Shown here: piece after piece, positions 169 through 60,878 of the stretch
How the letters are laid out: each line of letters starts with the position of its first letter
Numbering within the stretch: the stretch's first letter is position 1
Source of the DNA: Escherichia coli
GTDB lineage: Bacteria; Pseudomonadota; Gammaproteobacteria; Enterobacterales; Enterobacteriaceae
DNA length: 64,000 nt
Reading direction: 5' to 3' (one strand)
NCBI RefSeq assembly: GCF_048403405.1
Contig: NZ_CP183129.1
Translations under genes and position numbers: made by a program
Notes under the pieces: generated by a model
Seen by the model: the letters and a program-made list of their open reading frames with translations, nothing else
Databases searched by the model: none
What the model was told of the DNA's origin: nothing

Positions 169-245
<77 letters not shown>

Positions 246-279
246 TCACCGTACTGCTTTTACTTCATCAAATTTTGAT

Positions 280-356
<77 letters not shown>

Positions 357-389
357 TCACCGTACTGCTTTACTTCATCAAATTTTAAT

Positions 390-466
<77 letters not shown>

Positions 467-472
467 TCCGTG

Positions 473-520
473 GATGCGCACTATACTCCGCTCGCGTTTT
501 CATGCAACCTTTTTTTTAAC
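473..520 (-). promoter_or_regulatory. Stable-RNA type sigma70 promoter for the tRNA-fMet operon
   Basis: Minus-strand TTGCAT (plus 502-507), 16-bp spacer, TATAGT (plus 480-485), GC-rich discriminator (gcgcatcc) before the tRNA 5' end, A-tract UP-like element upstream (plus 511-519). Confidence 0.5.
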
Positions 521-674
521 CCGATCACGGATTCGGCATGATTTTGAACAAAAACAAATCACTAAAGCCTATTTTTTGTGCAAAATTTGCGTCAGGGAGA
601 GGCTGCTCATTTCATTAAACGCGGTGGTTTGTTATCTTCGTTGCGCCTTATTTTTTAACCTGAAGAAGAGAACA

Positions 675-4788: not shown

Positions 4789-4994
4789 AAAAAAAAGCAC
4801 CGCAATTAGGCGGTGCTACATTAATCACTATGGACAGACAGGGTAAATGTACAGGAAGTGAAAAAAGGTAGCTTTGCTACCATGGTCTGAATCGCAGACC
4901 AATTGCAAACACAACAACACAACATCACAACCGTAAGCCAAAAGTTCACCAGAACACGCATTCCGATAAAACTTTTCGTTCCGGCTCAGGAAGT
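4789..4994 (-). ncRNA. gcvB: GcvB small regulatory RNA (Hfq-dependent regulator of amino-acid and peptide transporter mRNAs)
   Basis: Minus strand reads ACTTCCTGAGCCGGAACGAAAAGTTTTATCGG...GTTGTGATGTTGTGTTGTTGTGTTTG...AGCACCGCCTAATTGCGGTGCTTTTTTTT, matching E. coli gcvB including the GU-rich R1 region and terminator; divergent from gcvA. Confidence 0.9.
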
Positions 4995-23213: not shown

Positions 23214-23579
23214 GTCGACAGGGAGTCAGACAACGAAGTGAACATCAGGATGATGACACTTCTGAAGGACACACCAGGATGGTGTTTCAGGGAAAGGCTT
23301 CTGGATGAAGCGAAGAGGATGACGCAGGACGCGTTAAAGGACACCTCCAGGATGGAGAATGAGAACCGGTCAGGATGATTCGGTGGGTCAGGAAGGCCAG
23401 GGACACTTCAGGATGAAGTATCACATCGGGGTGGTGTGAGCAGGAAGCAATAGTTCAGGATGAACGATTGGCCGCAAGGCCAGAGGAAAAGTTGTCAAGG
23501 ATGAGCAGGGAGCAACAAAAGTAGCTGGAATGCTGCGAAACGAACCGGGAGCACTGTGAATACAGTGCTCCCTTTTTTT
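23214..23579 (+). ncRNA. csrB: CsrB sRNA (CsrA-sequestering RNA)
   Basis: Begins GTCGACAGGGAGTCAGACAACGAAG; at least 8 CAGGATG/AGGATG motifs plus further GGA motifs; ends with hairpin gggagcactgtgaatacagtgctccc plus 7-nt T run; located between syd and yqcC as in E. coli. Confidence 0.92.
23547..23579 (+). terminator. csrB intrinsic terminator
   Basis: Perfect hairpin gggagcactgt / acagtgctccc followed by TTTTTTT. Confidence 0.85.
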
Positions 23580-23624
23580 ATTCCTGCTATCCTTCGCGGC
23601 AGTTTTTCTTATTGAGGTTGCTTT

Positions 23625-26991: not shown

Positions 26992-28332
26992 ATGACGACA
27001 CAATCCAGTCCTGTTATTACTGATATGAAAGTCATTCCGGTCGCCGGGCACGATAGCATGTTGCTTAATATTGGTGGGGCGCATAACGCATATTTCACTC
27101 GCAATATTGTGGTACTCACCGATAACGCCGGGCATACCGGCATTGGTGAAGCGCCAGGCGGAGAGGTGATTTATCAGACACTGGTCGATGCTATTCCGAT
27201 GGTGTTGGGCCAGGAAGTTGCGCGCCTGAATAAAGTGGTTCAGCAGGTGCATAAAGGTAATCAGGCAGCCGATTTTGATACCTTCGGCAAAGGTGCCTGG
27301 ACTTTTGAATTGCGCGTTAATGCCGTGGCGGCGCTGGAAGCCGCCTTGCTTGACCTGCTAGGTAAGGCGCTGAATGTTCCGGTCTGCGAACTGTTGGGGC
27401 CAGGCAAGCAACGCGAGGCTATTACCGTCCTCGGTTATCTGTTTTATTTCGGTGATCGGACCAAAACCGATCTTCCTTATCTGGAAAATACGCCGGGCAA
27501 CCATGAGTGGTATCAGTTGCGCCATCAGAAAGCGATGAACAGCGAAGCCGTTGTGCGTCTGGCGGAAGCCTCACAGGATCGCTACGGCTTTAAAGATTTC
27601 AAACTTAAGGGCGGCGTGTTACCTGGCGAGCAAGAAATCGACACTGTTCGTGCATTGAAGAAACGCTTCCCGGATGCGCGGATTACCGTTGATCCCAACG
27701 GTGCATGGCTGCTTGATGAAGCCATTTCTCTGTGCAAAGGGCTGAATGATGTTCTTACCTATGCCGAAGATCCATGCGGAGCAGAACAGGGGGTCTCCGG
27801 ACGTGAAGTGATGGCGGAGTTTCGGCGGGCGACCGGCTTGCCCGTCGCGACTAATATGATCGCCACCAACTGGCGCGAAATGGGCCATGCGGTGATGCTC
27901 AATGCGGTAGATATTCCACTTGCCGATCCGCACTTCTGGACGCTTTCCGGTGCAGTCCGCGTGGCGCAGCTTTGCGACGACTGGGGGCTGACCTGGGGCT
28001 GCCATTCCAACAACCATTTCGATATCTCTCTGGCGATGTTTACCCATGTGGGCGCGGCGGCACCGGGTAATCCTACCGCTATCGATACCCACTGGATTTG
28101 GCAGGAGGGCGATTGTCGCCTGACCCAAAATCCGCTGGAGATTAAAAACGGAAAAATTGCCGTTCCTGATGCGCCCGGTCTGGGCGTGGAACTGGACTGG
28201 GAACAGGTACAAAAGGCACATGAGGCCTATAAACGTCTGCCTGGCGGTGCGCGTAACGACGCGGGCCCGATGCAGTACCTGATCCCCGGCTGGACCTTTG
28301 ACCGTAAACGTCCCGTTTTCGGCCGTCATTGA
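26992..28332 (+). CDS. gudX: Glucarate dehydratase-related protein (enolase superfamily paralog)
   Basis: 446 aa [24 protein letters not shown]...; paralog of the downstream gudD. Confidence 0.92.
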
Positions 28333-28352
28333 TTTTGAAAAAGGACATAAAT

Positions 28353-29693
28353 ATGAGTTCTCAATTTACGACGCCTGTTGTTACTGAAATGCAGGTCATC
28401 CCGGTGGCGGGCCATGACAGTATGCTGATGAATCTGAGTGGTGCACACGCACCGTTCTTCACGCGTAATATTGTGATTATCAAAGATAATTCTGGTCACA
28501 CCGGGGTAGGGGAAATTCCCGGCGGCGAGAAAATCCGTAAAACGCTGGAAGATGCGATTCCGCTGGTGGTGGGTAAAACGCTGGGTGAATACAAAAACGT
28601 TCTGACGCTGGTGCGTAATACATTTGCCGATCGTGATGCCGGCGGGCGCGGTTTGCAGACATTTGACCTGCGGACCACTATTCATGTGGTTACCGGGATA
28701 GAAGCGGCAATGCTGGATCTGCTGGGGCAGCATCTGGGGGTTAACGTGGCATCGCTGCTGGGCGATGGTCAACAGCGTAGCGAAGTCGAAATGCTCGGTT
28801 ATCTGTTCTTCGTCGGTAATCGCAAAGCCACACCGCTGCCGTATCAAAGCCAGCCGGATGATAAATGTGACTGGTATCGCCTGCGTCACGAAGAAGCGAT
28901 GACGCCGGATGCGGTGGTGCGCCTGGCGGAAGCGGCATATGAAAAATATGGCTTCAACGATTTCAAACTGAAGGGCGGTGTACTGGCCGGGGAAGAAGAA
29001 GCAGAATCTATTGTGGCACTGGCGCAACGCTTCCCACAGGCGCGTATTACCCTCGATCCTAACGGTGCCTGGTCGCTGAACGAAGCGATTAAAATTGGTA
29101 AATACCTGAAAGGTTCGCTGGCTTATGCAGAAGATCCGTGTGGTGCGGAGCAAGGTTTCTCCGGGCGTGAAGTGATGGCAGAGTTCCGTCGCGCGACTGG
29201 CCTGCCGACCGCAACCAATATGATCGCCACCGACTGGCGGCAGATGGGCCATACGCTCTCGTTACAATCCGTTGATATCCCGCTGGCGGATCCGCATTTC
29301 TGGACGATGCAAGGTTCGGTACGTGTGGCGCAAATGTGTCATGAATTTGGCCTGACCTGGGGTTCACACTCTAACAACCACTTCGATATTTCCCTGGCGA
29401 TGTTTACCCATGTAGCCGCTGCTGCACCGGGTAAAATTACTGCTATTGATACGCACTGGATCTGGCAGGAAGGCAATCAGCGTCTGACCAAAGAACCGTT
29501 TGAGATCAAAGGCGGGCTGGTACAGGTGCCGCAAAAACCAGGATTGGGCGTAGAAATCGATATGGATCAGGTGATGAAAGCCCACGAGCTGTATCAGAAA
29601 CATGGGCTTGGTGCGCGAGACGATGCGATGGGAATGCAGTATCTGATTCCTGGCTGGACGTTTGATAACAAGCGCCCGTGCATGGTGCGTTAA
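28353..29693 (+). CDS. gudD: D-glucarate dehydratase
   Basis: 446 aa starting [25 protein letters not shown] at the ATG (28353) with RBS; the track start is an upstream TTG. Confidence 0.93.
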
Positions 29694-29863
29694 GACAGAA
29701 AACCAAAACCGGCTTCATAAGAAGTCGGTTTGAGATTACTGACGAAGTGGTTTACGGGGCCGGTTTTCCCCCTCACCCTCTCCCCGGAGGGGCGAGGGGA
29801 CTGTCTGTGCTGCTCCCAGCATTGGCATTGGACGGAACCTATTTTGACTCGACAAGACGTCCA

Positions 29864-32620
29864 TTACCCGAGAATTTTGCTGGCTTCGCGCGCGACATTA
29901 TCCATCTCGTCCAACAGTTCCAGCAGCTCCGGCTCCAAATCTTCTTCTTTAGTACCGCTACGTAGCTGTTGTTCGATCAGCTGGCAGAGATTCTTCATAC
30001 GCGGCACACCGCTATAGCCGCAACTGCCATGCAGTTTATGAATCAAATCAACCAGGCCTTCCGGGTTTTCTCCAACCAGCTGTTCCTCAACTTTGTTGCG
30101 AACTTCAGGCAGGAAATCGAGTAACATTTGCAGCATATCGCGCGCTAAATCGGTTTTTCCTGCTGCCTGGCGTAGTGCCAGTTGCCAGTCGAGGGTCGCA
30201 TTCGGGTTCACCACAATTTCGTTGACTTCGGGCGTCACGACGCGAGACGAAATACCGCTGCCAGGCTTGTAGCGCAACAACAAATTATGCAATCGCTCTT
30301 CTTCAATCGGTTTCGCCAGATAATCGCTCATCCCTGCGCCAAGCAGCTTCTCTTTTTGCCCGGCCATTGCATGCGCCGTTACCGCGATAACTGGCGTTTG
30401 TTGCTGATGGGGGAGCTGGTGGATGAGTTCGCAGGCCCGAATGCCGTCCATGTCCGGCATTTGAATATCCATTAAGATCAAATCGAACGGCATCTGTTTC
30501 GCCCGTTCAACCGCCTGATGCCCGCTATCGCAAAGTTCCACATGTTGCACCATATCTTCCAGCAATGCGCCGATAAGTTTCAGGTTAGCGGGGTTGTCAT
30601 CAACCGCCATGACTGTCATTGCCAGCTTACTTTCATCGGTTACAGGCAAAAGCGTGTTTTGTTTGTGATGACAAAATTCCGTCAGGGCAGGTAACAGGCG
30701 CGTAGGTGTTAATGGTTTCAGCAGACACGCGCCGATACCATCTTGCTTAAGTTTTTCAGCATTGACTTGTGCATGGCAAGGAAGTGCCAGCATCAGAAAA
30801 TCGGTCATCGATACCGCTTTCGCTAATCGCTCATGTTGCATTGTTAGCGGCTCGCGGAAGGTCACCGCGATGCCTAACAACATCATGTCGTAATGCGCGG
30901 GAGGCAGCGCGGAGAACGTTGGGCTATAAACCACTTCCAGCGGCGTTTCACTTAAAATATCCAGCGTGCATTGCGCTGCTGCGGAGTTTGGTTCGACATA
31001 GGCCAGGCGCTTGCCGGCTAGGCACTGGGTGGATGGCCCTTCGATAATAATGTTCGGGTTCAGATCGAGATTAATGTGGAACCAGAAAGTTGAACCGCGA
31101 TTCGGCTGGCTATGGAACGAAATATCGCCGCCCATTTCATTAACCAGTTTTTGTGTAATCACCAGCCCCAGCCCGGTGCCACCATGACGGCGGGAAATAC
31201 TGGCATCAGCCTGTCGGAAGGCCTGGAATAAGCGCGATTGATCGCGTTCAGGAATACCAATGCCGGTATCCCGAATCTGCACTTCAATCTGCACTTTAGT
31301 ATTACTCAGAGCACGTTTTTCTACCAGAATATCAATGTTGCCATTCTCGGTGAATTTAATTGCATTCCCCACCAGGTTAGTGATGATTTGCTGTAATCGC
31401 AGTGGGTCGCCGATCACGTTATCGGGCACGTCGCTCTTAATATTGAGCGTCAGTTCCAACCCTTTATCGTGAGAAGAATGTGCCAGCAGGGTAACGACTT
31501 CATCCAGCGTGCTGCGTAGTGGGAATGGAATACTTTCCAGAATCAGCTTACCTGCTTCCAGTTTCGAGAAGTCGAGAACATCATTAATAATTGCCAGCAA
31601 ATTATTTGCCGAACGTTCAATCGTATTCAGGTGATCGCGCTGCGTTGGTGTTAATTCTGTTTTCAGCGTCAGGCGGGTAAAGCCAATAACACCATTCAGT
31701 GGTGTACGCAGCTCGTGTGACATATTTGCAAGAAACTCGGATTTAATACGCGCCGCTTCCTGGGCGCGCTTTTTCGCCAGATCCAACTCAACGTTCTGAA
31801 TTTCCATCTGCTCCAGCGTTTCACGCAGATCGGACGTCGCCTGGTCGATATTGTGCTGCATCTCTTCGTGATAAGCAGCCAGCGACATTGCCATCGAGTT
31901 GATACCGTTTTTCAGCATATCCAGCTCGCCGAGCATAAATCCTTCCACACGGCTGTCGAGTTGCCCGCGACGGATGCGGTCGACGGTATTCACCATATTG
32001 CGAATCGGACCGGTTACATCGCGCATTAAGCGCCAGCCAAAAATAAGCGCAATACCGATACAAAACAGCATCATCACGCTGGAAATAAAGATCTCTTTAT
32101 ATTGCTGCAAGCGAACCGATTTAAGATCCAGCTCCAGCGCAATATATCCCAGCATATTTTGACTATTTTTGGCATCGCTACTGGGCGATTCGTCGGGGGA
32201 GTAACTCTCAGAAATAATCGGCGTGCGGAGGATCATAATATCGCCGTCACGAGTGACAGTGAGCTGGCGAGGAAACGGCACGTTGCTGCCGAGCTGCATT
32301 GATGAAGGATCAAGATGAAAATTGGAGGTGACAAAGAGTCGGTTATTTTCATCATAAACCGAAATCGCGCGAACAATATCGGAATGGCGACGATGCAGTA
32401 CGCTTATTAACTGACCGATAGATTCGCGATTTTGCAGGCTCATGCCATATTCAGTAGAAACTGCAAGCGGCTCAATAATGCTGGCTCCGGCATCTTCCAG
32501 TTGACGCTGCAAGTCGTTATAGCGATGCACAACGAAAAAGATACTCAGCAATAAACCAATAAGGACGGTCGGTGCCAGGATCAGAATCATCATGCGTGCG
32601 CGCAGGCTGTAGTTGGTCAT
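29864..32620 (-). CDS. barA: Hybrid sensor histidine kinase BarA (HAMP-HisKA-HATPase-REC-HPt)
   Basis: 918 aa [24 protein letters not shown]...; H-box SHELRTPLN; matches BarA. Confidence 0.95.
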
Positions 32621-60517: not shown

Positions 60518-60725
60518 GCGAGCAGCATTCCGGCATTTAAAGGTGAACATCGCAGGGAGAATTAACAGGTATAGAATGGAGTTGGGTGCTTGAGGCTGTC
60601 TGGCGTTAAGCATTCGCGAGGTTCCAGATGGACAAAAGCCCCAGGCGATATTTCTATCAACCTGAGGCCAGCGTTCGAACCTAAGCAATTCGAATGTTAG
60701 TCTCTTCTTTGCAGGGAGGCAAGAC

Positions 60726-60878
60726 ATGCTGACAAAATATGCCCTTGTGGCAATCATCGTACTGTGTTGTACAGTACTGGGATTCACGCTGATGGTAGGC
60801 GACTCGTTGTGTGAGTTGAGTATCAGAGAACGTGGTATGGAGTTTAAGGCAGTTCTCGCTTACGAATCGAAGAAGTAG
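60726..60878 (+). CDS. Hok-family type I toxin (50-aa small membrane protein), part of a hok/sok-like locus
   Basis: [53 protein letters not shown]: N-terminal TM helix plus conserved Hok motif DSLCE...R...[11 protein letters not shown]; below the 60-aa cutoff of the ORF track; followed by hairpin cgcgggg gtaaaa ccccgcg (60885-60904) and a T run; K-12 carries a hok/sok-type locus (sokX) at this position. Confidence 0.8.

Follow-up and report, generated by a model that had tools for sequence, protein, structure and literature searches.

A degenerate BoxC (PIT/TMECO) remnant in the gudD-barA spacer of Escherichia coli

A GC-rich palindrome and a stem-loop between two convergent genes

The window, by which we mean the whole 64-kb stretch of Escherichia coli DNA analyzed here, contains two convergent open reading frames (ORFs) that correspond to gudD and barA in the annotation of an E. 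coli genome identical to the window over positions 29544-30013. The 170-bp spacer between them hosts a GC-rich imperfect palindrome, CCCCCTCACCCTCTCCCC/GGAGGGGCGAGGGG, which is strictly intergenic, with the gudD stop (29693) on one side and the barA stop (29864) on the other. The text of the window across the palindrome reads ...ggccggttttCCCCCTCACCCTCTCCCCGGAGGGGCGAGGGGactgtctg..., and it is made up of a C-rich arm, ccccctcaccctctcccc, and a G-rich arm, ggaggggcgagggg (Table 1). A repeat finder matches two 10-nt arms within it (29769-29778 and 29790-29799) that are 90% complementary. A preliminary description of this DNA, made by reading the letters, had reported a GC-rich imperfect palindrome between the convergent gudD and barA genes, and the sequence is as it described; the limits that it gave (29767-29800) are in the right place but are one base too wide at each end. 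A 42-codon ATG ORF on the minus strand (29864-29736) overlaps the barA stop and reads through the repeat. This ORF was rejected as mechanical, and the majority allele of the spacer replaces its sequence entirely.

RNA folding of the palindrome is not better than that of composition-matched shuffles on either strand (z = -1.0 on the plus strand and -1.5 on the minus strand), and the same is true of DNA folding (z = 0.07). Folding energy thus provides no evidence that the palindrome exceeds what is expected by chance, and it is homology that shows the sequence to be nonrandom. Within the window, the 31-mer of the palindrome occurs once, against 0.00 occurrences expected in shuffles, and the two-block core CCCTCNCCC-N3-6-GGGNGAGGG likewise has one match, against 0.00 expected. 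No further copies of the palindrome were found within the 64-kb window. Because of this single copy, the signal for a repeat family was taken from other genomes.

An 11-bp stem-loop is found just after the gudD stop. It had been described as a weak gudD hairpin, ccggcttcataagaagtcgg, at 29709-29728; that position is correct, but the hairpin is not weak, as the full stem extends over 29706-29731. As plus-strand RNA, it has a dG of -17.9 kcal/mol and a z score of -5.5, with 0 of 200 shuffles folding as well, and on the minus strand it has a dG of -15.6 kcal/mol and a z score of -3.35. The stem-loop is kept in the divergent spacer of the K-12 type, where one pair has changed in a compensatory manner (U-A to C-G) and two other changes affect one side of the stem only. 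Its plus-strand tail, GAGAUUACUG, is U poor, and on the minus strand UGGUUUUCUGUC follows three U residues of the stem. With an A tract upstream, a T-rich stretch downstream, and conservation across divergent alleles, this stem-loop resembles Rho-independent bidirectional terminators, whereas the GC-rich palindrome differs from them in that it has no U tract on either strand. Indeed, no run of U or T follows the palindrome on either strand, where the tails are ACUGUCUG (plus) and GAAAACCG (minus). A scan for promoter and terminator consensus sequences over 29600-29950 returned no calls; it also missed the stem-loop, because the U tract of the latter is interrupted. The preliminary description thus read the palindrome correctly both in finding no U run beside it and in judging that it is not a standard intrinsic terminator.

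Judged by its folding, conservation, and tails, the stem-loop is probably a bidirectional intrinsic terminator common to gudD and barA, and for barA it is plausibly no less effective than for gudD, with the better U tract being on the barA strand. Transcription of both convergent genes is more likely to end at the stem-loop than at the palindrome. If the stem-loop does terminate, then the palindrome would lie inside the 3' untranslated region (UTR) of barA and beyond the terminator of gudD.

Typical rut sites are stretches of ~70 to 80 nt of unstructured RNA that are rich in C and poor in G. The preliminary description had raised the possibility of Rho-dependent termination at the palindrome, with the C-rich run acting as a rut site, and the plus strand does contain an 18-nt run that is C rich and G poor, with no U run after the hairpin. 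However, this run is short and is sequestered at once by pairing with its G-rich complement, the leading arm on the barA strand is G rich, and gudD transcription probably ends at the strong hairpin upstream, before the run is reached. Furthermore, PIT elements, i.e., members of the repeat family identified below, are reported to lack terminator activity in the summary of earlier work given in PMC4666352. We thus found no support for a Rho site here and regard one as very improbable.

Table 1. Coordinates of features in the gudD-barA spacer, elsewhere in the window, and in compared loci
Feature	Coordinates	Strand	Basis
ORF corresponding to gudD	28329..29693	+	annotation of E. coli genome identical over 29544-30013
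ORF corresponding to barA	29864..32620	-	annotation of E. coli genome identical over 29544-30013
U-rich tail UGGUUUUCUGUC after stem-loop, barA sense	29694..29705	-	sequence reading
Stem-loop, candidate bidirectional intrinsic terminator of gudD/barA	29706..29731	.	folding, conservation
Remnant of ~124-bp composite BoxC pair, approximate limits	29757..29810	.	composite copies aligned from five loci
GC-rich imperfect palindrome, core of truncated BoxC/PIT/TMECO	29768..29799	.	inverted repeat and alignments to BoxC copies
C-rich arm of palindrome	29768..29785		
G-rich arm of palindrome	29786..29799		
Deletion junction CCCTCACCCT, hybrid of CCCTCGCCCT and CCCTAACCCT	29770..29779	+	alignments, deletion reconstruction
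Two surviving BoxC blocks CCCTCTCCC-CGGAG-GGGCGAGGG, Watson-Crick hairpin part	29776..29798	+	sole two-block match in window
CsrB	23223-23582	+	Rfam, ARAGORN
GcvB	4789-4994	-	Rfam, ARAGORN
sok antitoxin RNA	60584-60741	+	Rfam, ARAGORN
Three tandem tRNA-Met (CAT) genes	169-466	-	Rfam, ARAGORN
Composite BoxC pair copies in compared loci	L001 1566-1690; L006, L008-L011 ~positions 400-525		alignment

Membership in the BoxC family and alleles of the spacer

As had been judged from the letters, the palindrome is not a REP element. No match to the REP consensus palindrome (GCCGGATG...CATCCGGC type) was found in the window with up to three mismatches; the K-12 allele of the spacer does contain one. 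REP and BIME elements are also short GC-rich intergenic palindromes that are often found between convergent genes, and K-12-type E. coli has a REP in this very spacer, but the sequences are unrelated, with the stem of REP being GCCGGATG...CATCCGGC rather than homopurine/homopyrimidine blocks. Rfam searches, performed permissively on 29400-30100 and at gathering thresholds on the whole window, returned nothing credible at the palindrome. The best match there, to a eukaryotic antizyme element, scored 22.1 bits against a threshold of 40 and was taken as chance.

The family to which the palindrome belongs is BoxC, an enterobacterial repeat known since the 1990s (Bergler 1992) and characterized in three later studies (Hoyne et al. 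2000; Hoyne and Maher 2002; Holder et al. 2015). The name BoxC gave way to PIT (potential intrastrand triplex) and subsequently to TMECO (PMC4666352). Its consensus, CCCTCNCCC-N3-6-GGGNGAGGG-N3-GGGNGAGGG, consists of three G/C blocks (Holder et al. 2015, PMC4666352). In K-12 MG1655, the same authors described 23 TMECOs and five inverted pairs of a type A and a type B unit. Another study of K-12 (PMC2267715) detected 22 BoxC copies, compared with a reported number of 32. Holder et al. (2015, PMC4666352) also found raised local variability at TMECO loci, no stable triplex in vivo, and, for paired TMECOs, a “palindrome effect” in which parts of both units are lost and a stem-loop is left.

The sequence in the window descends from this family. 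Full-length BoxC copies from other places align to it without gaps and with 95% identity, and it also aligns to the right-hand BoxC unit of a longer allele of the same spacer. It has the same blocks, CCCTCNCCC and GGGNGAGGG, is likewise intergenic, and is orthologous to a full inverted pair of type A and type B-like units in sister genomes. It differs from the family in that it keeps only two separated blocks, the third overlapping the second without the 3-nt loop. The remnant therefore misses the three-block consensus, and the proposed triplex fold is unavailable to it; no match to the consensus CCCTCNCCC-N3-6-GGGNGAGGG-N3-GGGNGAGGG or its complement was found in the window. Given this arrangement of blocks, formation of an intrastrand triplex by the remnant would not be expected. 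As it lacks the strict three-block consensus, the sequence should be classed with degenerate BoxC remnants rather than with canonical members. The left unit of the ancestral pair departs from type B as well, in that its loop is GCG and not CCG.

The partial loss of a pair that is seen here resembles the “TMECO mutated” and “palindrome effect” cases of Holder et al. The literature already covers the family, its taxonomic spread, and decay of this kind, and the remnant is not a new element. The earlier suggestion that the palindrome may belong to a distinct small repeat family was thus correct as to a family, but the family is a known one and the site holds a truncated remnant rather than a typical member. 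Neither gudD nor barA had a match in the searched part of the supplements of Holder et al., whose set comprises 62 TMECO loci.

As a query for the family, we used a 45-nt full-length copy from the fimH-gntP spacer (L005), which appears as TMECO no. 23 in Holder et al. 2015 (PMC4666352). Of 5,426 complete E. coli genomes, 5,425 contained matches to it, at 94,182 places that were almost all chromosomal, with a median of 19 and a range of 2 to 34 per genome. A genome-wide search for the motif had been proposed in the preliminary description; the family is multicopy, and the motif is thus not unique. The genome with accession no. OX030728.1, which is identical to the window over the 170-bp spacer, has 22 BoxC places. 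Copy number is strongly lineage dependent: UTI89, Nord8, and Ecol_244 have only 2 to 5 places, and others have 26 to 34.

Every genome of the 5,426 except one matched the ends of gudD and barA, and a 470-bp query across the spacer was covered to at least 80% in only 189 of them. The spacer is polymorphic, and three states were found: REP, BoxC pair, and BoxC remnant. Most E. coli genomes have the REP allele, an example of which is the K-12 derivative KLY (L002), with a 231-bp spacer that contains a REP (GCCGGATAAGGCGTTAACGCCGCATCCGGC) and no BoxC. The long allele is found in ~140 genomes (records at ≥99% identity) and has a 240-bp spacer with two full BoxC units inverted around a spacer of ~28 nt; strains 266917_2 (L001) and MSB1_6C (L003) are examples that have identical flanks and two three-block matches in inverted orientation. 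One or two three-block matches are likewise present at other BoxC loci. The short 170-bp allele is present in 13 of the 5,426 genomes (the window and 12 others), with position 29775 being G in seven of these and A in six, the window included; strains MS 69-1 and TUM14771, whose sequence equals that of the window over 29544-30013, are carriers of it. In all, roughly 153 genomes have BoxC sequence in this spacer. The coding flanks of the window are identical to those of the long-allele haplotype at 338/340 and 340/340 positions, versus 324/340 and 337/340 for the K-12 type.

The REP of KLY (L002 473-505) is located at the equivalent of ~29760-29810 in the window, which is the site of the BoxC remnant. 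The surrounding ~130 to 200 bp of spacer can barely be aligned between the REP and BoxC allele classes, and the flanking genes are 95 to 99% identical. The spacer seems to have been replaced wholesale between allele classes.

These alignments also bear on whether the palindrome could be a chance GC-rich sequence that belongs to no repeat family. Its folding energy is no better than that of shuffles and it has a single copy in the 64-kb window, as a chance sequence might. However, sister genomes have a full BoxC pair as its ortholog, from which it differs by exactly 70 bp, it has the 95% alignment to BoxC copies elsewhere, and its two-block pattern is expected 0.00 times. A chance origin is refuted by the orthology and the family match, and we give it next to no credence.

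The 70-bp difference and possible routes to the remnant

Removal of exactly 70 bp from the long allele gives the short allele with G at position 29775 (G type). Any of five equivalent breakpoints yields this sequence, which corresponds to a 4-nt microhomology, CCCT. The deletion is in register between imperfect 10-nt direct repeats, CCCTCGCCCT in the first block of the left unit and CCCTAACCCT at the boundary of blocks 1 and 2 in the right unit. The allele of the window, CCCTCACCCT, is reproduced if the 70-bp deletion, again in register, has its crossover after the fifth base of the repeat and before the sixth, i.e., one step earlier than in the G type. It is equally reproduced by the G-type allele with one G-to-A change at 29775, and a two-step route of 64 plus 6 bp likewise gives the same sequence. 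At the unique single-step breakpoint of the window allele, perfect microhomology is absent, so this allele must have arisen by a homeologous crossover, through a point mutation acquired later, or in two steps.

Overall, we consider it highly probable (approximately 0.85) that the palindrome is a degenerate BoxC (PIT/TMECO) remnant that represents the scar of an inverted pair after loss of its inner 70 bp. That the change was a deletion, as opposed to an insertion or a gene conversion repair, is inferred from parsimony, allele frequency, and flank similarity rather than from a rooted tree.

Folding of the long pair gives one hairpin of ~100 nt (single-stranded DNA dG of -35 kcal/mol; z = -4.8). 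An inverted BoxC pair would thus constitute a long quasi-palindrome that could be extruded as a hairpin of about this size, and slipped mispairing or microhomology-mediated repair across the hairpin could then delete the inner 70 bp. The outer base of the hairpin would survive as two blocks able to form a short GC hairpin, with the third triplex block gone, and the remnant would simply be carried in the 3' UTR of barA. Slippage or microhomology-mediated repair across the extruded quasi-palindrome is the likely deletion route, and the remnant, as far as its sequence indicates, most likely has no dedicated function.

We also found the same truncated 31-nt core, CCCCTCACCCTCTCCCCGGAGGGGCGAGGGG, at a second locus, between yafL and a truncated flhA in strain MB53 (L014 248-345), where it is the right-hand partner of a pair. 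A solitary BoxC unit with the same right flank (GGACAGTCCGAGACCTTATATAGCC) is located ~170 bp past this pair (L014 458-515). The arrangement at this locus suggests a local duplication, combined either with 6-nt slippage that recurs or with gene conversion among BoxC copies. Such slippage or conversion may also have produced the core in the window, and to that extent the yafL locus counts against the deletion account.

The whole BoxC pair with its spacer (~124 bp) is itself repeated, at 83 to 89% identity and with a median of four places per genome. Copies of this composite at ygfF-gcvP, entC-fepB, gldA-yijF, and alx-sstT align over the whole length, with the spacer and a few outer bases included, and it is this alignment that gives the approximate limits of the remnant in Table 1, which include the conserved edges GGCCGGTTTT (left) and ACTGTCTGTGC (right). 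The existence of a composite unit fits the five inverted type A and type B pairs of MG1655. In its length of ~124 bp, inverted ends, conserved spacer, and presence at several loci, the composite BoxC pair is similar to MITE-like repeats (ERIC/IRU); the window differs from these in that it holds only an internally deleted remnant.

The composite might be viewed as a nonautonomous mobile element that was inserted in the gudD-barA spacer of one lineage and whose collapse is recurrent and selected, leaving a functional GC clamp in the 3' UTR of barA that would stabilize RNA or insulate the two convergent genes from each other. The truncated 31-nt core in MB53 could be read as a recurrence of this collapse. 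Such a history seems quite unlikely to us.

Probable position in the barA 3' UTR and significance of the locus

As an alternative to a remnant without dedicated function, its GC hairpin could be a REP-like stabilizer of RNA that blocks 3'-to-5' exonucleases, either in the 3' UTR of barA or in gudD read-through transcripts. The remnant is suitably placed for this, being between the barA stop and the probable shared terminator, and it forms a stable hairpin on both strands, with 66-nt segments that contain it folding at approximately -28 to -30 kcal/mol. The majority K-12-type allele also has a REP at the equivalent position, so a structured element recurs there. However, the folding is no better than that of composition-matched shuffles, the locus can accommodate a REP, a BoxC pair, or the remnant, all three being very different from one another, and the literature, as relayed in PMC4666352, finds no effect of PIT elements on transcription-related activities. 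A stabilizing role is therefore unlikely. According to the summary in PMC4666352 of Hoyne and Maher 2002, PIT elements have neither promoter nor terminator activity and do not affect RNA polymerase, and the titles and abstract openings of post-2015 literature on intrastrand triplex repeats in E. coli report no function for BoxC.

Elsewhere in the window, Rfam and ARAGORN identify CsrB, GcvB, the sok antitoxin RNA, and three tandem tRNA-Met (CAT) genes. CsrB, the transcription of which depends on BarA/UvrY, is encoded only ~6 kb from barA.

The correct annotation of the palindrome is thus a BoxC/PIT/TMECO remnant and not a candidate new family or a Rho site, and beyond this correction the sequence is of little importance in itself. 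The locus is, however, a clean natural case of instability of paired BoxC elements, with three allelic states, a 70-bp deletion that can be reconstructed, and frequencies among 5,426 genomes, and it could serve studies of palindrome- or triplex-stimulated deletion in E. coli.
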